In this document: positions 1 through 9,704 of the stretch, one piece after another
Numbering within the stretch: position 1 is the stretch's first letter
Layout: every line of letters starts with the position of its first letter
From: a virus
Taxonomy: Duplodnaviria > Heunggongvirae > Uroviricota > Caudoviricetes
Strand: one strand, 5' to 3'
IMG/VR virus record: IMGVR_UViG_2869947659_000009
Span: 1 to 18,386 of that record
Length of the DNA: 18,386 nt
The notes under the pieces: model-generated
Told to the model about the DNA's origin: nothing
What the model saw: the letters and a program-made list of their open reading frames with translations, nothing else
The model's database searches: none
Translations under genes and position numbers: made by a program

Positions 1-342
1 ATGATGAAAAAAAGTATTCTGGCGTTTCTGTTACTCACCAGTTCTGCAGCGGCGCTGGCTGCACCGCAGGTGATTACCGTCAGTCGTTTTGAAGTGGGTA
101 AAGACAAATGGGCGTTTAATCGCGAAGAGGTGATGCTGACTTGCCGACCGGGTAATGCTTTGTATGTTATTAATCCGAGTACCCTCGTGCAGTATCCTTT
201 AAACGATATCGCACAAAAGGAAGTTGCCAGTGGGAAGACCAATGCCCAACCCATTTCGGTGATTCAGATTGATGATCCTAACAATCCCGGCGAAAAAATG
301 AGTCTGGCACCGTTTATAGAACGAGCTGAAAAACTCTGTTAA
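1..342 (+). CDS. yebY: YebY-like small secreted protein (DUF2511 family), 113 aa
   Basis: Complete ORF with an N-terminal signal peptide ([22 protein letters not shown]). Sequence recognised from memory as E. coli YebY, and the sdsR sRNA lies immediately downstream on the same strand as in E. coli K-12. Followed by a hairpin terminator. Confidence 0.65.
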
Positions 343-377
343 TTACCTAAAATAGCCTTTTGATTTCCAATAAAAAA

Positions 378-414
378 ACCGCCTCAGTTCTTTCACCAGA
401 ACGGGCGGTTTTTA
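378..414. terminator. Bidirectional intrinsic terminator (yebY on + strand; candidate RyeA 3' end on - strand)
   Basis: Imperfect GC-rich hairpin accgcctcagttctttcaccagaacgggcggt, preceded by an A7 run and followed by a T5 run, so it reads as stem plus U-tract on both strands. Confidence 0.5.
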
Positions 415-500
415 ACATTTCAGCTGATGACCACCACGCTTTTTATTGACCATTTTGCACGCAAACTGGAAAACCTGGCGTCGTCATCTATTCTTAAAGG

Positions 501-603
501 GCAAGGCAACTAAGCCTGCATTAATGCCAACTTTTAGCGCACGGCTCTCTCCCAAGAGCCATTTCCCTGGACCGAATACAGGAATCGTATTCGGTCTTTT
601 TTT
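501..603 (+). ncRNA. sdsR: SdsR (RyeB) small RNA, RpoS-dependent
   Basis: Sequence gcaaggcaactaagcctgcattaatgcc...ccgaatacaggaatcgtattcggtcttttttt matches my recollection of SdsR/RyeB, including its terminal hairpin and U-tract. A sigma-S-type -10 (tctattctt, 487-495) sits just upstream. Position downstream of yebY matches K-12 synteny. Confidence 0.6.
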
Positions 604-636
604 AATTTCATTTGAAATCAATTAGTTGCAAATGTC

Positions 637-656
637 TCCCCGAAATTCCCCGAAAT
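637..656 (+). repeat. Perfect 10-bp tandem direct repeat (tccccgaaat x2)
   Basis: Read directly at 637-646 and 647-656, in the 130-bp gap between the sdsR 3' end and the integrase stop codon. Candidate integrase arm-type or accessory-protein site. Confidence 0.6.
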
Positions 657-669
657 TTACTCGAATTTC

Positions 670-690
670 TGTATTCCGGTCTTTTTTGGT
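670..690 (+). repeat. Imperfect second copy of the sdsR 3' terminator end (att-core-like)
   Basis: tgtattccggtcttttttggt (670-690) versus cgtattcggtctttttttaat at the sdsR 3' end (586-606), about 84 bp apart, directly upstream of the integrase 3' end. Confidence 0.4.
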
Positions 691-734
691 TATATCACAA
701 CCAAAATACATTTAACAATCCATTTACGTTAAAA

Positions 735-1263
735 TCAGAGCAGTAAGTACGTTTTTTCTCTCTCATCAAGATACATTTTTGTTGTCTTCTCCGATGTGTG
801 GCCAAGTAGACGCTGAGCAAATTCTTCTCCACATGTTTCTTTGTACAATCGTCCAGCCAGGCTTCTGACTTCGTGAAAAGTTGGTGGGTTTTCACTGAAC
901 TGGATACCTGTTAATTTTCTGGCTGCGACAAATTTCTTTGTCAGGCCGTCCGGGTGAATGCTGCCGTCAGGGCTGTTTTTTCTAATCCCGGCACTGATTA
1001 GATAATCCCCCCTACTTACCATGCGGCACTGTTCAACTACTGCACCAAGTCGTAAACCAGCGACAGGAAGGCTGAGTGACAGGGGGATAGCAATCATCAT
1101 TCCTGTCTTAATTTGCCTGATGTGGAGACGATCATCATAAATATCACTGAACCGCATATTCGTTATGTCTTCGCGACGTTGTCCTGTTACAAGGGCTAAA
1201 TCCATAGCTAATGGGAACCATGCCGGAAGTTGATCTGCTGCCTCCCTGATGCAGTTGTATGTC
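735..1263 (-). pseudogene. int: Lambda-family tyrosine integrase, C-terminal catalytic fragment (separated from the rest by IS600)
   Basis: Translation ...LAMDLALVTGQRREDI...PPTFHEVRSLAGRLY...FAQRLLGHTSEKTTKMYLDERE aligns closely to the lambda Int C-terminus (LAMELAVVTGQR..., PPTFHELRSLSARLY, LLGHKSDTMASQY) with the catalytic R, HxxR and Y. The fragment ends exactly at the IS600 end at 1264. Confidence 0.85.
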
Positions 1264-1429
1264 TGAGGTAGCCTGAGTTTAACGGACACTCCTTCCTGAA
1301 ATAGAATGGCATCAGAAGGAGCTAATAATGAGCAGAAAAAACCAACGTTACTCTAAAGAGTTCAAAGCCGAAGCTGTCAGAACGGTTTGAACCGCCCCGA
1401 GTTTCCTGGAGAGTGTTTTATCTGTGAAC

Positions 1430-2320
1430 TCAGGCTGCCAGATCATCGTTTCCGATGGAAGCATAATAAGCTTTTTCTGCTTCTGCCGGAGGGATGTGGC
1501 CCAGCCTTTCCAGCAATCGTCGATTATTATACCAGTCCACCCACGTGAGTGTGGCCAGTTCCACTTCTGCACGGTTTTTCCAGCTCTTACGGTGTATTAC
1601 CTCCGCTTTGTAAAGACCATTGATGCTCTCCGCCATCGCGTTGTCATACGAGTCGCCTGTACTTCCTGTTGATGCCAGTAATCCGGCTTCCTTAAGCCGC
1701 TGTGTGTAGGCCAGCGATACATACTGAGAACCTTTATCACTGTGATGGACCGTGCCGGACGGTCGACGGGCCCATAACGCCTGCTCCAGAGCATCCAGCA
1801 CGAATGTCGTTTCCATGGACGATGAGACCCGCCACCCCACGATGTATCCGGCAAACACATCAATAATGAACGCCACATAGACGAAGCCCTGCCATGTGCT
1901 GACGTAAGTAAAATCAGCCACCCACAGCTGGTCAGGTCGTTCTGCCACGAACTGACGGTTTACGCGGTCGCCTGCGGCAACGGCTTTCCGGCTGATGGTC
2001 GTACGGACCTTTTTACCCCGGAGAACGCCGGCAAGTCCCATAACCGCCATGAGACGTGCCACAGTGCATCTGGCCACTCTGATACCTTCCCGTAACAACT
2101 GACGCCAGACTTTACGCACACCGTATACCTGATGATTCCCATCGTATACGCGCAGTATCTCTTTCTTCAGCCAGTCATCGCGCTGCGCACGGGCACTGCG
2201 TTTATCAGGATGATGTCGCTGTTGCTGACAGTGGTAATACGTTGACGGGGCAATATGTAGTTCACTGCATACCGGTCCGACCCCGTACAGCTTACGCAGC
2301 TTATCCAGCAGTGGCATCAC
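1430..2320 (-). CDS. IS629 OrfB (DDE transposase catalytic part)
   Basis: 296-aa uninterrupted [32 protein letters not shown]... with the DDE region ...WVADFTYV...HSDKGSQY... Confidence 0.85.
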
Positions 2321-2643
2321 TTTTTCCAGAGGCGGTCGAACTCCGCCTTCGCAAAATAAGCGGAAGCCTGGCGAAGGATATCGTTACTGCGGCGCAGTTC
2401 ACGATTTTCACGTTCCAGCTCTTTCAGACGCTGACGTTCAGCGGTGGTGAGCCCGCCATCACCGCCTCCGGTATCCCGCTCATGCTGGCGTACCCAGACA
2501 CGCAGAGTCTCCGGTGTACAGCCAATCTTTGGGGCAATGGAACAAATTGCCGCCCACTGTGAGTCATATTCGCCCTGACTTTCCAGAACCATACGAATCG
2601 CCCTCTGACGGACTTCGGGGGAAAAACGAGTATTTTTAGTCAT
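2317..2643 (-). CDS. IS629 OrfA (transposase N-terminal, HTH part)
   Basis: 108-aa [29 protein letters not shown]... recognised as IS629/IS1203-type OrfA. It overlaps orfB in the arrangement typical of IS3-family programmed frameshifting. Confidence 0.85.
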
Positions 2644-2978
2644 CCTGTTTACCTCTTTCTCAGGGAGTTTAGTCTCCAGGATTCCCGGGGCGGTTCAGTT
2701 CTTGAAAATCAACTTTCGATCAGTGAAGGCGCTTCCCGATTATCCCTTCCTGAAGGCACTTTAGGACAATGGGTTACCGCCGCCAGAAAAGGGCTCGGTA
2801 CTCCTGGTTCCCGCACGGTGGCTGAACTGGAATCTGAAATTCTGCAACTGCGTAAGGCGTTAAATGAAGCTCGCCTTGAGCGAGATATATTAAAAAAAGC
2901 AACAGCGTATTTTGCACAGGAGTCGCTGAAAAATACGCGTTAATCGAACAATGGCGACAACAATTTCCCATTGAAGCG

Positions 2979-3797
2979 ATGTGTCAGGTATTTGGTGTAT
3001 CCAGGAGCGGTTATTACAACTGGGTACAGCATGAACCCTCAGACAGAAAACAAAGTGATGAGCGGCTAAAACTGGAGATTAAGGTGGCACATATCCGCAC
3101 TCGCGAAACATATGGAACCCGGCGGCTCCAGACGGAGCTGGCAGAGAATGGCATCATCGTTGGTCGTGACCGACTGGCACGTCTTCGTAAGGAGCTAAGG
3201 CTACGCTGTAAGCAGAAACGCAAGTTCAGAGCGACTACGAACCCGAACCACAATCTGCCAGTTGCGCCAAATCTGCTGAACCAGACGTTCGCTCCTACAG
3301 CACCAAATCAGGTCTGGGTGGCGGACCTGACGTATGTTGCCACACAGGAGGGATGGTTGTACCTCGCTGGCATCAAAGATGTTTATACGTGCGAAATTGT
3401 CGGCTACGCCATGGGAGAGCGCATGACAAAAGAGCTGACAGGTAAAGCCCTGTTTATGGCGCTCAGGAGCCAGCGCCCACCTGCCGGGCTAATCCACCAC
3501 TCTGATCGAGGTTCACAGTACTGCGCATACGATTACCGGGTCATACAGGAGCAGTCTGGTCTGAAAACATCAATGTCGCGTAAAGGTCACTGTTACGACA
3601 ACGCTCCGATGGAAAGCTTCTGGGGAACGCTGAAAAATGAGAGCCTGAGCCACTATCGTTTTAATAACCGGGATGAAGCCATCTCAGTAATACGGGAATA
3701 CATTGAGATTTTTTACAATCGTCAGCGTCGTCACTCTCGTCTGGGGAATATCTCCCCGGCAGCCTTCAGGGAAAAATATCATCAGATGGCTGCTTAA
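2979..3797 (+). CDS. IS600 copy A OrfB (DDE transposase part); its partner orfA is disrupted by IS629
   Basis: 272-aa ORF MCQVFGVSRSGYYNW...WVADLTYV...HHSDRGSQY... It ends ...HQMAA because of TAA at 3795-3797, where copies B and C have CAA and run six codons further. Confidence 0.75.
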   Translation: MCQVFGVSRSGYYNWVQHEPSDRKQSDERLKLEIKVAHIRTRETYGTRRLQTELAENGIIVGRDRLARLRKELRLRCKQKRKFRATTNPNHNLPVAPNLLNQTFAPTAPNQVWVADLTYVATQEGWLYLAGIKDVYTCEIVGYAMGERMTKELTGKALFMALRSQRPPAGLIHHSDRGSQYCAYDYRVIQEQSGLKTSMSRKGHCYDNAPMESFWGTLKNESLSHYRFNNRDEAISVIREYIEIFYNRQRRHSRLGNISPAAFREKYHQMAA

Positions 3798-3840
3798 AAA
3801 AAGAACAAATGGTAGTGTCCGCTATTGCCAGTACACCTCA

Positions 3841-4276
3841 GTCTTTAGTTTCAGTCGTTCTCTTGTAACTACTATTTTCGGTGCTCTTGTTGGCGTGACT
3901 GGATTTTGAGATATACGTCCTTCAACAATGGCCTCGCGAAACATATCAGACAACACAGAACGCATTGATCCTGCCATTGTGTTTTTCCCTCCTTCAATCC
4001 ACAAATCAAGAAACTCGGCAATATGGCGAGTGGTTATTTCTGTCAGTAAAATCTCTCCCAATTTTTCTTTTATTGTCTTCAGTTGATTTGCCCGAATTTT
4101 ATAAGTATTTCTGGACACTTTTCTCCTTATAAGAATCGTTTTGTAACGTTCAATCCAGTCTGCCATAGTAAATGAGTCGAACCCTTTAAGTTTTTCAATT
4201 AAGGCAGCAGGAGAGTAGTTTTTGTATATATAATGATTTGCTTCAATTGCCTGCGCTACTGCATCTCTTCTTGAAA
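3841..4276 (-). pseudogene. int: Lambda-family integrase, central (core-binding) fragment; 5' end missing at the IS911 junction
   Basis: Translation RRDAVAQAIEANHYIY...WIERYKTIL...ITTRHIAEFLDLWIEGGKN...MRSVLSDMFREAIVEGRISQNPV aligns to lambda Int residues about 40-180. Removing IS600 and one GTC copy rejoins it in frame to the 735-1263 fragment (...RERLKLKT/YNCIREAADQ...). The upstream boundary is the IS911 end at 4277. Confidence 0.8.
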
Positions 4277-4284
4277 TGAAGTGG

Positions 4285-5453
<1,169 letters not shown>

Positions 5454-5572
5454 TGGAGCACCTGTGTTGTTCTGAGGTGAGCATATCACCTCTGTTCAGG
5501 TGGCCAAATTCAGTGTGCCACTTCATAGATAGGCCTGTGTGTTTATTGCTCGTTGAAAAAGCGCCATAGATT

Positions 5573-5869
5573 TTAGTCCTCCAAATCAATATCAACCTGG
5601 TGGTGGGCAATGGTTTCAGCCATGTACCGGATGTGTTCTGCCATGCGCTCCTGAAACTCAACATCATCATCAAATGCGTGGCTGATTGCCTGTTTATTGG
5701 CACCGTGGCGTTGCAAATGGTCGATGCAGAGCGATTCAAACAGGTGCTGAGGCAGACCTTTTTCCAGATCGTCCGCCAGTTCCGTTTCTTTTTCTTCACG
5801 AACGATCTGCTGGTAGTGACGAGCCCATGCCATTTCTTCAATACGATCAAAAATCGGGTAAGCGCTCAT
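5573..5869 (-). CDS. Hypothetical acidic 98-aa protein (prophage early-left region)
   Basis: [43 protein letters not shown]... with a GGAG Shine-Dalgarno 9 nt upstream of the ATG at 5869. No family recognised. It lies immediately beside the IS911 end. Confidence 0.5.
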
Positions 5870-7577
5870 CACTGGTCACTCCAAAATTTTCAAGCTTGTT
5901 GGCAATCATCATTGCGATGCCAGGGATTGCAGGCGCATAGGCTATGCACGCAGGATTCGCACATAAACCGTAAACCGCCGCAATCAACACCTGTTTTTTT
6001 CCAGTTGAGTTCATCTTCGCCAGTTTCATTATTGCTATCATTATGCTGATCGCTGCCAGCGTTCTCCGGCAACAAATCATCAGCTTTTTCCGTTTTCTTC
6101 GGCTCTTCTTCCTGTGCTTCATCTGGTTTTTTTCGTCAAAAGTTTCCTGATAAGTTGCGTCTCCCATCACCGCGCCACAGTCAGGGCAGTTATCCTCGCC
6201 AGTCTGATTGCAGGGTGTTCCCTCCTCCGGTTCGCTGTTCTGGTGCTGTTTATCTTCAGTCTGTCGCACTTCATTTTCCGTTTTTTTGACTTCATTTGAG
6301 GAGATATGATGACCGGGAATCCATTTCGAATCATTCGGGTCGCTAATCCCTTCAACAAATTCTCCGCGAGAGGCAGCCAGTAATTTGTCTGCATCGACAG
6401 GATTTTTGGGCGGAATGTTTTTCCGGGCTTCATGGAGTTCTGTCCGCAGTTTCTGATATTTCGCATCAACAGCATTTACCTGTGACTGAGCATCCAGCGG
6501 CTGCGTGTCCTGATGATGTTCAGTTGCATCCGGTTCCACTGTTTCAGCCGTTGCCTGTTCATCTGCCATTGCGCAAGATGGTTGCGGTTTTTCTTCATCA
6601 TCCTGTTTTCCTTCTTCTGTTACACGTTGCGGCATCGGGGCAGAGGAGCGACCGCAGGCAATATCCACGATTTCCGGATCAGGGTTGGCATGATCGGTTT
6701 CAGTCAGTACCTTGTTCAGATATTCAGTGACGTGCGCGGGGATGACCTCGATACCAATCGGTGCTTCTTTCACTGACGCAACCACGATGGCGCGGGAATA
6801 ATCCATCCCGCCAGGCATGGTGATGAATTTGTCGCGGAAAACAGAAAAGGGTGGTTTATTTTCAGCGATAATTTCCTCAATGCGTTTAGCGTGTGCCGGA
6901 TGAAGGTTATAAATATCCACGTCCATTGAACGGGCCAGTACGCCAGTGGCTACGTCGCGCGCCAGCGACGTCAGATCGTGGACGAAACCTTCGCCGCGAT
7001 CGGTGAGGTTCCCGCCGCCAGCATTCGCACCGGAAGCCGTGCGCGTGATGCGTGAAACACGATTTCCTTTCATCCACTCTTTTGTCAGCAGACCGCGATC
7101 GGTGTAGTTGGCATCCAGATATGCTTCGAAAAAAGCAGTCATCAGTCCCAGATTTGAATTGCCAGGATTAGGGAAAACTTTGTCAGTATCACGCACGAGT
7201 TTGTGGAGATCGCGAATTTCCAGCGGGTCGAGCAGGCTGGTTTTATGCGAAACAGCCAGGGCAGTAACAGCTGGTAGTTCCTCAGCCCGTGCAATGTGTA
7301 ATGCCTGGAGTTCGTCGCGTGAAACGTACGTTACCGGTTTTTCGCTGCCGTGTTGAGCAAGCCAGCGAATGGGCAGCTCCTGACCAGAAATCGGGAGTAG
7401 CATATTCTCCTCAATCTCCGTCATGTCTTCGCCATTAACATTGGTATTGTCAGTGCTGGCTGGTTTGTCCTGCGCAGAGGGTGAGGGCGCGATAAATACC
7501 ATTGTGATGCCATCTTCCCCGCCTTTTTCGTAACGGTTGCAGAATTCCGTATCAAACACGCCTTCTGGTGGGAGGTC
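5847..7577 (-). pseudogene. recE: RecE-like (exonuclease VIII family) gene, distal part; interrupted upstream by IS600 and apparently lacking the C-terminal nuclease domain
   Basis: Long ORF with strings ([107 protein letters not shown]) that match my recollection of the non-catalytic N-terminal two-thirds of Rac RecE. After ...DPNDSKW the sequence diverges and ends in [10 protein letters not shown]..., a polybasic run and a hydrophobic tail, with nothing resembling a PD-(D/E)xK nuclease domain. Confidence 0.55.
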
Positions 7578-7641
7578 TGAGGTAGCCTGAGTTTAACGGA
7601 CACTCCTTCCTGAAATAGAATGGCATCAGAAGGAGCTAATA

Positions 7642-7884
7642 ATGAGCAGAAAAAACCAACGTTACTCTAAAGAGTTCAAAGCCGAAGCTGTCAGAACGGT
7701 TCTTGAAAATCAACTTTCGATCAGTGAAGGCGCTTCCCGATTATCCCTTCCTGAAGGCACTTTAGGACAATGGGTTACCGCCGCCAGAAAAGGGCTCGGT
7801 ACTCCTGGTTCCCGCACGGTGGCTGAACTGGAATCTGAAATTCTGCAACTGCGTAAGGCGTTAAATGAAGCTCGCCTTGAGTGA
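7642..7884 (+). pseudogene. IS600 copy B orfA with nonsense mutation (80 codons instead of 100)
   Basis: Identical to copy C OrfA up to ...ALNEARLE, then TGA in place of CGA (a single C-to-T change at 7882). Confidence 0.7.
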
Positions 7885-7979
7885 GATATATTAAAAAAAG
7901 CAACAGCGTATTTTGCACAGGAGTCGCTGAAAAATACGCGTTAATCGAACAATGGCGACAACAATTTCCCATTGAAGCG

Positions 7980-8816
7980 ATGTGTCAGGTATTTGGTGTA
8001 TCCAGGAGCGGTTATTACAACTGGGTACAGCATGAACCCTCAGACAGAAAACAAAGTGATGAGCGGCTAAAACTGGAGATTAAGGTGGCACATATCCGCA
8101 CTCGCGAAACATATGGAACCCGGCGGCTCCAGACGGAGCTGGCAGAGAATGGCATCATCGTTGGTCGTGACCGACTGGCACGTCTTCGTAAGGAGCTAAG
8201 GCTACGCTGTAAGCAGAAACGCAAGTTCAGAGCGACTACGAACCCGAACCACAATCTGCCAGTTGCGCCAAATCTGCTGAACCAGACGTTCGCTCCTACA
8301 GCACCAAATCAGGTCTGGGTGGCGGACCTGACGTATGTTGCCACACAGGAGGGATGGTTGTACCTCGCTGGCATCAAAGATGTTTATACGTGCGAAATTG
8401 TCGGCTACGCCATGGGAGAGCGCATGACAAAAGAGCTGACAGGTAAAGCCCTGTTTATGGCGCTCAGGAGCCAGCGCCCACCTGCCGGGCTAATCCACCA
8501 CTCTGATCGAGGTTCACAGTACTGCGCATACGATTACCGGGTCATACAGGAGCAGTCTGGTCTGAAAACATCAATGTCGCGTAAAGGTCACTGTTACGAC
8601 AACGCTCCGATGGAAAGCTTCTGGGGAACGCTGAAAAATGAGAGCCTGAGCCACTATCGTTTTAATAACCGGGATGAAGCCATCTCAGTAATACGGGAAT
8701 ACATTGAGATTTTCTACAATCGTCAGCGTCGTCACTCTCGTCTGGGGAATATCTCCCCGGCAGCCTTCAGGGAAAAATATCATCAGATGGCTGCTCAAAA
8801 AAAGAACAAATGGTAG
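7980..8816 (+). CDS. IS600 copy B OrfB (DDE transposase part)
   Basis: Open frame MCQVFGVSRSGYY...HQMAAQKKNKW. The upstream in-frame extension exists only because the orfA stop is displaced. Confidence 0.75.
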   Translation: MCQVFGVSRSGYYNWVQHEPSDRKQSDERLKLEIKVAHIRTRETYGTRRLQTELAENGIIVGRDRLARLRKELRLRCKQKRKFRATTNPNHNLPVAPNLLNQTFAPTAPNQVWVADLTYVATQEGWLYLAGIKDVYTCEIVGYAMGERMTKELTGKALFMALRSQRPPAGLIHHSDRGSQYCAYDYRVIQEQSGLKTSMSRKGHCYDNAPMESFWGTLKNESLSHYRFNNRDEAISVIREYIEIFYNRQRRHSRLGNISPAAFREKYHQMAAQKKNKW

Positions 8817-8841
8817 TGTCCGCTATTGCCAGTACACCTCA

Positions 8842-9054
8842 GTCATCAACAACGGGCAAATTGACGCGAACAGGTTTTTTGAAGTCATCTTCATCGTATC
8901 CAGCATCGTCAATCGCAACAGCACCACGGGAGATGGCAATGGATAATTTTTTCGCTTCAGCCCAGTAAAAACCGCCTTTAATACCGAGACGTTTTCTTAC
9001 TTTGTCATTTTTTGCTTCGTAATACAGTGGGTAAACTTGTTTATCGGTGTTCAT
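8842..9054 (-). pseudogene. recE: RecE-like gene, N-terminal 70 codons (upstream of the IS600 insertion)
   Basis: ORF MNTDKQVYPLYYEAKND...KPVRVNLPVVDD with a GAGG Shine-Dalgarno before the ATG at 9054. Removing IS600 B and one GTC copy gives the in-frame junction ...[23 protein letters not shown]..., resembling the RecE segment [23 protein letters not shown]. Confidence 0.5.
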
Positions 9055-9124
9055 TGTTTTTTAACCTCAACTCAGATTAAAATTACTGCGAGTGATGAAT
9101 AAATGTCCCAGGTTCTTCACTCAG

Positions 9125-9154
9125 GCCTGCACAGTGTGCAGGCTTTCTTTTTTT
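9125..9154 (+). terminator. Intrinsic-terminator-like hairpin on the + strand
   Basis: gcctgcac-agt-gtgcaggc stem-loop followed by tttcttttttt, in the 176-bp gap between two minus-strand genes. On the minus strand the hairpin is not followed by a U-tract. Confidence 0.4.
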
Positions 9155-9230
9155 CAGATTTCACCTTTTAATTTCATTGCAATCAGAGTTGCCAGAAATT
9201 CGGCTTTTTTTTCTGCGGGCAGATTCTTTC

Positions 9231-9428
9231 CTATGTGCACCAGACACATTTTTTTACACCATCGTTAAGTGTTTTAACGTTGCCTGATGGACCGTCGATA
9301 TCAACCACAGTGAATGGGGTTTCTTTATTTTCTGTCTTAATCACGTAGCCAATACGCTTTCCTTCCAGATTAACCTCGTGAACAATGTCATCAGTAGTTA
9401 CAACAGTGGCTTCATAACTGGTAATCAT
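9231..9428 (-). CDS. Hypothetical 65-aa protein
   Basis: ORF MITSYEATVVTTDDIVHEVNLEGKRIGYVIKTENKETPFTVVDIDGPSGNVKTLNDGVKKCVWCT with a strong AAGGAG Shine-Dalgarno 7 nt upstream of the ATG at 9428. C-terminal CxxC. No family recognised. Confidence 0.5.
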   Translation of the reverse strand: MITSYEATVVTTDDIVHEVNLEGKRIGYVIKTENKETPFTVVDIDGPSGNVKTLNDGVKKCVWCT

Positions 9429-9512
9429 GTTTTTCTCCTTAATTAAGGTTGAGCGAACCCCTGCCATTGCTGGCATATAAGAATGAAACCGGATATTTAT
9501 TACGGAACTGTT

Positions 9513-9704
9513 TTAAAGACCTGCCGGGATTTCGTTATTATCATGGTGAATAACTTTATCGACCGGATAACAGTCACCGGGAATTTTCTGTTTCGCTGCG
9601 GCAGTCATACATTCTTTCATTGAGCTGTATACGCCAGTAACCATGTCAACCGGTTCACCGGAAACAAGAAAAACCGTCAGAACGAGTGCAAATACTGTAT
9701 TCAT
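9513..9704 (-). CDS. Hypothetical 63-aa protein with N-terminal signal peptide or membrane anchor
   Basis: ORF MNTVFALVLTVFLVSGEPVDMVTGVYSSMKECMTAAAKQKIPGDCYPVDKVIHHDNNEIPAGL. Its ATG overlaps the stop of the upstream gene (ATGA at 9701-9704). Hydrophobic N-terminus and two Cys. Confidence 0.5.
   Translation of the reverse strand: MNTVFALVLTVFLVSGEPVDMVTGVYSSMKECMTAAAKQKIPGDCYPVDKVIHHDNNEIPAGL

Follow-up and report, generated by a model that had tools for sequence, protein, structure and literature searches.

A terminator hairpin in the racC-recE spacer of Rac-type prophages and the antisense RNA that it probably ends

The racC-recE spacer of a decayed Rac-type prophage

The DNA analysed here, called the window throughout, is the 18,386-nt stretch at positions 1-18,386 of the viral record IMGVR_UViG_2869947659_000009 of IMG/VR. 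It contains the early-left arm of a Rac/Qin-type lambdoid prophage, now decayed, in which the 100-nt spacer between a racC-like gene and recE holds a stem-loop followed by a U-tract. The racC stop codon is 8 nt away from the hairpin and the recE start 69 nt away (Table 1). The neighbouring genes are all on the minus strand and the hairpin is directed against them, upstream of the recE-like start, as the initial annotation of this DNA had observed. Both protein genes beside it are pseudogenes. RacC, which is a 91-aa protein in relatives where it is intact, is spelled jointly by ORFs 9231-9476 and 9154-9249, and recE is split by IS600, the remainder of the gene continuing from ~7559 downward (ORF 5847-7559, which matches Pfam Exonuc_VIII). 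The homologous sites in relatives are annotated recE (exodeoxyribonuclease VIII). The predicted RNA unit described below (promoter, body and terminator) shows no difference from that in intact prophages, for example our locus L004; since both flanking genes are pseudogenes, only this unit is still intact within the racC-recE segment of the window.

Insertion sequences make up much of the surroundings (1382-3840, 7577-8841 and 13805-16425), at a density that looks Shigella-like. Three copies of IS600 are present (2698-3840, partial; 7577-8841; and 13805-15069, inverted), as is an inverted pair of another IS3-family element with an ALIL frameshift pseudoknot (Rfam matches at 2246-2362 and 15449-15565). 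At 463-607, some 0.8-1 kb from the first IS-like sequences of the IS-rich segment, lies a core-chromosome locus, the overlapping sRNA pair SraC/RyeA (minus strand) and SdsR/RyeB (plus strand).

The Rha-domain gene calls for a separate comment. Gathering-level Rfam matches to C4 antisense RNA (79 bits) and isrK (64.8 bits) fall at 10506-10694 on the minus strand, inside the first ~100 codons of this 281-aa "Rha family" ORF. The same stretch is a match to Pfam Phage_ASH (residues 14-104), and the Rha domain begins at residue 117. In the form annotated in relatives, the ORF may thus be too long, taking in two RNA genes that belong to a P1 immI / Gifsy isrK-type module, and its start is more likely the Met in ..AAIMATTL...

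Table 1. Features of the window in and around the racC-recE spacer
Feature	Position	Strand	Description
Rha-domain ORF	9900-10745	-	Early-left arm
dicB	9701-9889	-	Early-left arm
DUF1482	9513-9758	-	Early-left arm
racC-like gene	9154-9428	-	Frameshifted in A-run 9241-9247; stop codon abuts the U-tract
U-tract UCUUUUUUU	9146-9154	+	Adjoins the 3' side of the stem; tail also given as TCTTTTTTT
Terminator stem-loop	9123-9145	+	AGGCCUGCAC / AGU loop / GUGCAGGCUU; 10 pairs, one G-U, 6 G-C; GC-rich stem, 3-nt loop
SL1, predicted 5' stem-loop	9090-9122	+	Stems GAGUGA/UCACUC and GAAU/GUUC; 11-nt loop
Predicted sigma-70 promoter of the antisense RNA	9054-9083	+	-35 TTGTTT 9054-9059, 18-nt spacer, -10 TAAAAT 9078-9083; from sequence only
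recE translation initiation region	9052-9069	-	ATG 9052-9054, Shine-Dalgarno GAGGUU 9064-9069; nearest sense-strand feature to the antisense RNA gene
recE N-terminal stub	8842-9054	-	71 codons, cut by IS600; from the ORF list and repeat analysis
IS600 copy B, in recE	7577-8841	+	Transposase reads toward the hairpin; 1265-nt repeat, 100% identical to the inverted copy 13805-15069

The initial annotation had described a clean stem-loop with a U-tract at 9125-9154, and closer inspection bears this out, with a 10-bp stem at 9123-9145 and the tail at 9146-9154. On the plus strand the stem-loop reads AGGCCTGCAC-AGT-GTGCAGGCTT and is followed directly by T-C-T7, the last T of which (9154) doubles as the first base of TCA at 9154-9156, the racC-like stop codon on the opposite strand. 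The structure therefore has the features of an intrinsic terminator: a GC-rich stem with a short loop, and a U-tract directly 3' of it on the transcribed strand. Read on the minus strand, the same hairpin runs into GAGUGAAGAACC and has no U-tract, as had also been noted. The combination of an A-tract upstream and a U-tract downstream that a bidirectional terminator requires is likewise lacking, the minus strand continuing as GAGUGAAGAACC. Because there is no minus-strand terminator, we infer that the spacer is co-transcribed with the genes of the operon.

How unusual is such a structure in this DNA? A consensus terminator scan ranked the hairpin second in the window (10 pairs, 6 G-C, 3-nt loop, tail TCTTTTTTTC); the third-ranked terminator-like site is the terminator of SdsR. 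The generic form of the scan is permissive, giving 29 sites in the window versus 19.5 +/- 4.6 in shuffles. As it is unselective, the sites were recounted with 9 or more bp, 6 or more G-C pairs and 6 or more T in 8 required; by these strict criteria the hairpin is the sole site in the 18.4-kb window with both strands counted. Dinucleotide shuffles of the whole window contained any such site in 4 of 100 cases (mean 0.04), although the thresholds were set after the hairpin had been seen, so that this uniqueness figure is indicative only.

Two of the origins that the initial annotation had offered for the hairpin can be dealt with at this point. The first is that it ends read-out from IS600. Copy B is aimed at the hairpin from 282 nt away, which makes read-out physically possible, but relatives without the IS, K-12 included, have the hairpin too, in conserved form, so that it predates the insertion. 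Termination of IS600 transcripts was accordingly rejected as the primary role and would be an incidental side effect. The second is that the hairpin is the relic of a convergent gene. The sole plus-strand ORF at the site (9092-9268) extends through the terminator and the two alleles of the spacer have no frame in common, so that no conserved plus-strand ORF remains to support the suggestion; a plus-strand coding gene was rejected for the same reasons.

Two spacer alleles, their fold and their strand preference

Of 5,426 complete E. coli genomes, 1,787 carry the spacer, K-12 among them, as do six phage records. In the E. coli matches it always lies between racC (or a racC-like hypothetical gene) and recE; in K-12 (NC_000913.3) these genes are at 1417488-1417763 and 1414786-1417386, respectively. 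RacC is 92-96% identical among the relatives, and a search for more distant ones via RacC brought up no sequences outside Escherichia and Shigella, all of them at least 95% identical. A few records carry unexpected labels. The racC-recE spacer of Actinobacillus phage vB_Apl-pPE4 (PP818812.1, 4972-5100) is 96.9% identical to that of the window, and metagenome-assembled genomes labelled Candidatus Nanosynbacter and "Proteobacteria bacterium" (L010, L013) have RacC at 95-96% identity. These probably all represent E. coli prophage sequence to which an incorrect host or bin has been assigned.

Two alleles of the spacer exist, that of the window and that of K-12, which are 74.6% identical overall. 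Invariant between them are the recE start, its Shine-Dalgarno sequence and the next ~20 nt as far as TAAAATT, together with the 3' end of racC. The ~45 nt that correspond to the body of the putative RNA are replaced, and the hairpin and the T-tract are kept, the T-tract being non-coding. Neither the recE N-terminal allele nor the upstream gene content is tied to the spacer alleles, which recombine independently of both. Strain VL7S7 has no racC, its exonuclease gene following directly after DUF1482 with the Shine-Dalgarno sequence kept. Its spacer is without the variable body, the hairpin and the TTG/TAAAAT hexamers of the candidate promoter, a pattern indicating that racC and the spacer element behave as one module.

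When viral contigs were searched for the invariant block, the tally of distinct variants rose to 34, and the terminator stem is preserved in every one of them. RNAalifold applied to 11 alleles returned a 9-pair terminator stem with no pair broken, one G-U to A-U change, and two compensatory pairs between the alleles (A-U to U-A and A-U to G-C), numbers that make for weak covariation statistics because the variation is limited to two alleles plus point variants. The loops vary freely, being AGT, GTT, ACT, ACA, TGA or GTC in variants of the window allele and CCATA, TCATA, ACATA, GCATA or TATGG in those of the K-12 allele. In strain GmM062 (L095, ~1280-1300) and in viral loci L122 and L150 the entire hairpin is present as the exact reverse complement of its usual form. 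The stem is unchanged and the loop is flipped, with TATGG in place of CCATA for the K-12 allele and ACT in place of AGT for the window allele, which suggests palindrome-mediated loop inversion.

When folded as plus-strand RNA, both alleles begin with a few unpaired nucleotides and then form a 5' stem-loop (SL1), the terminator hairpin directly after it, and a U-tail. The folding energies are -26.6 kcal/mol (z -4.2) for the window allele and -24.7 kcal/mol (z -4.3) for the K-12 allele; z ranged from about -3.6 to -4.3 across folds, and none of 200 shuffles folded as well. SL1 is the very segment that differs between the alleles: its sequence in K-12 is different and the SL1-plus-terminator architecture is the same.

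Which strand does the variation favour? As a hairpin is mirrored on the other strand, one-sided substitutions were used as a strand test. Among the 34 variants, pairing is kept on the plus strand only in six independent changes of this kind and on the minus strand only in two, and is lost on both in one. The six plus-favouring changes give G-U on the plus strand and an A-C mismatch on the minus strand; C-to-U variants in SL1 yield G-U on the plus strand only. As for the two that favour the minus strand, one is at a loop-closing pair and the other in a weakly predicted inner stem. Within the terminator stem alone the changes favour the plus strand 4 to 1, and the reference stems are paired at 20/20 and 21/21 positions on the plus strand, compared with 18/20 and 20/21 on the minus strand. 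The overall signal of 6 to 2 is modest, and agrees with the U-tract and with the direction of the Term-seq end described in the next section.

These counts bear on another explanation, namely that the element works in the racC-recE mRNA, as a stabiliser of the racC 3' end, as an RNase III or RNase E site, or as a fold that tunes recE translation, in which case terminator activity on the plus strand would arise incidentally from the A-rich stretch that follows the racC stop codon. The start of the hairpin only 8 nt past that codon fits such a role, as does the fact that the minus-strand spacer also folds well (-29 kcal/mol, z -2.9). That said, the minus strand has no U-tract, the reference stems are fully paired on the plus strand only, the one-sided changes run 6 to 2 for that strand, and the T-tract is kept in both alleles though it does not code. 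In addition, stems at RNase III sites are usually longer than 10 bp. A sense-strand role thus seems to us quite improbable. The processing or attenuation structure that the initial annotation had considered for the minus strand is disfavoured on two of the same counts, the missing U-tract and the one-sided substitutions, which mostly keep plus-strand pairing only.

An RNA 3' end at the K-12 hairpin

The K-12 homologue of the hairpin has an extended 10-bp stem at MG1655 1417458-1417482 (3959-3983 in L005, our MG1655 1413500-1420500 Rac locus). We compared its position with the curated Term-seq 3' ends of MG1655 (Adams et al. 2021, PMC7815308, Supplementary file 1). These include an end at 1417486 on the plus strand, classed as "antisense" to racC, which occurs three times across three condition sheets, with average reads of 185,664 (LB OD 0.4) and, in a second sheet, 146,140 (PMC7815308). 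On the plus strand of the same sheet SgrS has 6,222 reads, SokC 66,698 and the thrL attenuator 4,852, and most ends have 1,000-20,000 (PMC7815308). As the SgrS row makes clear, every 61-mer in the list has the 3' end at its position 51 (PMC7815308). To position 51, the K-12 61-mer reads ..GCAGGCUAUUUCU, that is, ...AUAGCCUGCGCCAUACGCAGGCUAU-UUCU, which places the 3' end 4 nt past the extended stem (..GGCUAU-UUCU) and 2 nt short of the racC stop codon. The tail after the extended stem in the K-12 allele is UUCUUUC, an interrupted tract; the window allele has U7. The Rho-termination table of the same study has no racC or 14174xx entry (PMC7815308).

Because the Term-seq end maps to the hairpin, we conclude that the K-12 homologue is a working plus-strand terminator of an abundant RNA, made in a lysogen in which the early-left operon is repressed. 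The initial annotation had named the lack of transcript 3' ends on both strands as the observation that would count against it; at the K-12 homologue a strong plus-strand end is present, and this dominant end supports its option of a terminator for an antisense RNA. By analogy with the mapped end, which belongs to the K-12 allele and hence to a spacer only 74.6% identical to that of the window, the 3' end in the window allele is expected at ~9148-9153. The lack of minus-strand Term-seq ends at the site is uninformative as to the sense strand, since the early-left operon is repressed in K-12.

Elsewhere in the K-12 Rac locus, minus-strand Term-seq ends are found at 1419679 and at 1420148, the latter inside racR. 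The MG1655 annotation of Rac lists RalA and KilS (b4833, upstream of kilR) and has no entry at the spacer site. The Rac early-left arm seems to be unusually rich in small transcripts.

The mapped end also bears on whether the hairpin is a chance palindrome, or a relic of a lost convergent gene, with no function at present. Generic terminator-like patterns are indeed common in the window, at 29 against 19.5 expected. Against this, the hairpin is the only strict match there, it is conserved with compensatory changes across ~1,800 genomes, it serves as an RNA 3' end in K-12, and a conserved plus-strand ORF is absent. Chance is effectively ruled out as an explanation of the hairpin, and we consider it very hard to believe that the element is functionless.

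A candidate antisense RNA on the recE leader

What transcript would this terminator serve? A candidate sigma-70 promoter, TTGTTT-N18-TAAAAT, matches the consensus at 8/12 positions, with the six most conserved ones present (TTG, TA and the final T). It scored below the threshold of a promoter scan tool, which called it neither in the window nor in K-12. The candidate overlaps the recE start codon and Shine-Dalgarno sequence (on the opposite strand) in the region that is invariant in both alleles, and the conservation of this block is ambiguous because it doubles as the recE translation initiation region. Strain VL7S7, in which the Shine-Dalgarno sequence is kept and the hexamers are lost, mildly favours a promoter function. 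Going by the sequence, the RNA is predicted to start near 9090 and to end at ~9150, giving a length of ~60-65 nt.

Searches for a prior record of such an RNA gave the following. No start-site entry for the locus was found in the Cappable-seq supplement, none of the 229 candidates from small-RNA deep sequencing (Shinhara 2011) is at this position, and the sRNA predictions based on RIL-seq (Bar 2021) have no racC or recE entry. Rfam 15, searched with both alleles at gathering and at permissive thresholds, has no family at the site, and a literature search found no paper naming an RNA between racC and recE. The predicted antisense RNA is therefore absent from the K-12 annotation, from Rfam and from the literature found, and would be an unnamed prophage RNA.

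The only near-match in Rfam, obtained with the window allele, was to OmrA/OmrB (RF00079; 22.5 bits versus a gathering threshold of 40, E = 0.14). The terminator hairpin (CCUGCxCAG..GCAGG plus a U-tract) and the overall length of ~80 nt resemble those of OmrA/B. In contrast, the conserved 5' seed of that family is unmatched, and the K-12 allele had no OmrA/B match in Rfam. Membership was rejected, the sub-threshold score reflecting terminator resemblance only. The Pas prophage sRNAs were set aside because they differ in locus, lying in late regions beside Q and holin genes.

Could the hairpin instead act as an insulator, with no dedicated RNA gene behind it? It would then keep long or spurious plus-strand transcripts from running into the early-left operon upstream of racC. 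The sources of such transcripts would be antisense starts in the AT-rich recE/recT genes, read-in from the int end, or IS600 read-out, and the K-12 end would be a stable, hairpin-protected decay product. A hairpin-protected 3' end could indeed derive from a longer transcript, IS600 copy B points at the hairpin, a search of the 1 kb upstream in K-12 found no strong consensus promoter, and neither the Cappable-seq supplement nor the 229-candidate catalogue provided evidence of a start site. However, the reads for the plus-strand 3' end are very high in all three conditions, and the TTG/TAAAAT hexamers co-occur with the hairpin. In E. coli, moreover, Rho normally terminates long untranslated antisense RNA well before 2.6 kb. 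Finally, the SL1 architecture is kept despite replacement of its sequence, and a bare insulator would not need SL1. Taken as a whole, the insulator explanation is unlikely.

The explanation that we favour, and hold to be probable, is that the hairpin and U-tract are the Rho-independent terminator of a gene for a lysogen-expressed, ~60-65-nt cis-antisense RNA in the racC-recE spacer of Rac-type prophages, and that this RNA restrains recE. The small RNA gene would fill the spacer and be transcribed against the early-left operon, in the lysogen, while that operon is repressed. Transcription would start at the weak-consensus promoter atop the recE start codon and Shine-Dalgarno sequence, and the product would fold as a 5' stem-loop with the terminator hairpin directly behind it. 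It has the attributes of an antisense RNA in that it lies wholly inside the spacer of a co-directional row of genes and is complementary to that spacer.

Two routes to an effect on recE and on the downstream recT can be envisaged, involving the RNA, the promoter or both. Being fully complementary to the spacer of the racC-recE mRNA, the RNA could form a duplex of ~60 bp, which RNase III could cut, so that recE would be uncoupled from racC or destabilised. Convergent transcription, and the presence of RNA polymerase on the recE initiation region, could also interfere with transcription entering recE, and the two effects could act together. Direct masking of the ribosome-binding site is not expected, since the predicted RNA ends ~20 nt short of the Shine-Dalgarno sequence. 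We infer from this arrangement that the RNA probably damps recE expression.

There is precedent for such an arrangement in temperate phages. The sar RNA of the P22 immI region, of ~68 nt, lies in the arc-ant spacer against the operon, has its promoter at the start of the downstream gene and an intrinsic terminator, and exerts negative control on that gene. The candidate RNA would likewise be a short spacer RNA, transcribed against the operon from a putative promoter at the start of the downstream gene, with an intrinsic terminator. The two differ in that sar covers the ant ribosome-binding site, whereas the predicted RNA stops ~20 nt upstream of that of recE and its promoter takes the place of the RNA in overlapping the site. 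In sequence the two RNAs are not similar. OOP of phage lambda is a 77-nt antisense RNA of the lysogen with its own promoter and a strong intrinsic terminator, and it leads to RNase III cleavage of the cII message. It shares with the candidate RNA the expression in the lysogen, the antisense orientation and the intrinsic terminator, with the difference that here the promoter is predicted and the RNase III route is proposed. Unlike the present case of a non-coding spacer in a leftward recombination operon, OOP overlaps coding sequence, at its 3' end, in the rightward operon, and the two are not homologous.

A closer neighbour is RalA, an antisense sRNA antitoxin of the same Rac prophage, which is also a small plus-strand RNA in the minus-strand early-left operon expressed while that operon is repressed. 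RalA, however, is 179 nt long and overlaps a gene beside the toxin gene ralR, whereas the spacer RNA is wholly intergenic. Nor does the locus resemble a type I toxin-antitoxin system, as there is no ORF opposite the RNA and the flanking genes are racC and recE.

A more far-reaching version is that in K-12 and about one-third of E. coli and Shigella this abundant unannotated RNA of the lysogen, which exists as two replaceable alleles with the same fold, sets the RacC:RecE/RecT ratio on derepression or acts in trans on host or competing-phage RNAs. We put this forward tentatively and think it rather doubtful. A search for trans complementarity found that the longest exact match to the rest of the window, or to the 7-kb K-12 Rac locus, was no better than for shuffled RNA. 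A review that summarises Bobonis et al. 2022 counts racC as a blocker, and recE as a trigger, of the retron toxin RcaT. Given these opposite effects on the retron, an element lying between the two genes could, speculatively, matter for their ratio. If the ratio-setting or trans-acting reading is true, it would mean a new regulatory layer in a classic recombination system, possibly one with a part in phage-defence interplay.

The RNA belongs to a known kind, that of phage antisense RNAs with intrinsic terminators, and is not a new type of element. The surprise is mainly that an RNA so abundant in K-12 is unnamed and is placed on the recE/recT leader; if it were a mere terminator-protected fragment, the finding would be an ordinary one. 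For genome annotation, nothing but the small RNA unit is still intact between racC and recE, both included, in this decayed, Shigella-like prophage, and its conservation, unannotated, in ~1,800 sequenced E. coli genomes would make it another prophage small RNA that was missed in the best-studied bacterium. The recE and recT genes of Rac constitute the classic RecET recombination system, on which recombineering is based. To our knowledge, their silence in wild-type K-12 has hitherto been explained by repressor control alone. If the favoured explanation is true, a strong antisense RNA on the recE leader would be a second, post-initiation lock on recE/recT.
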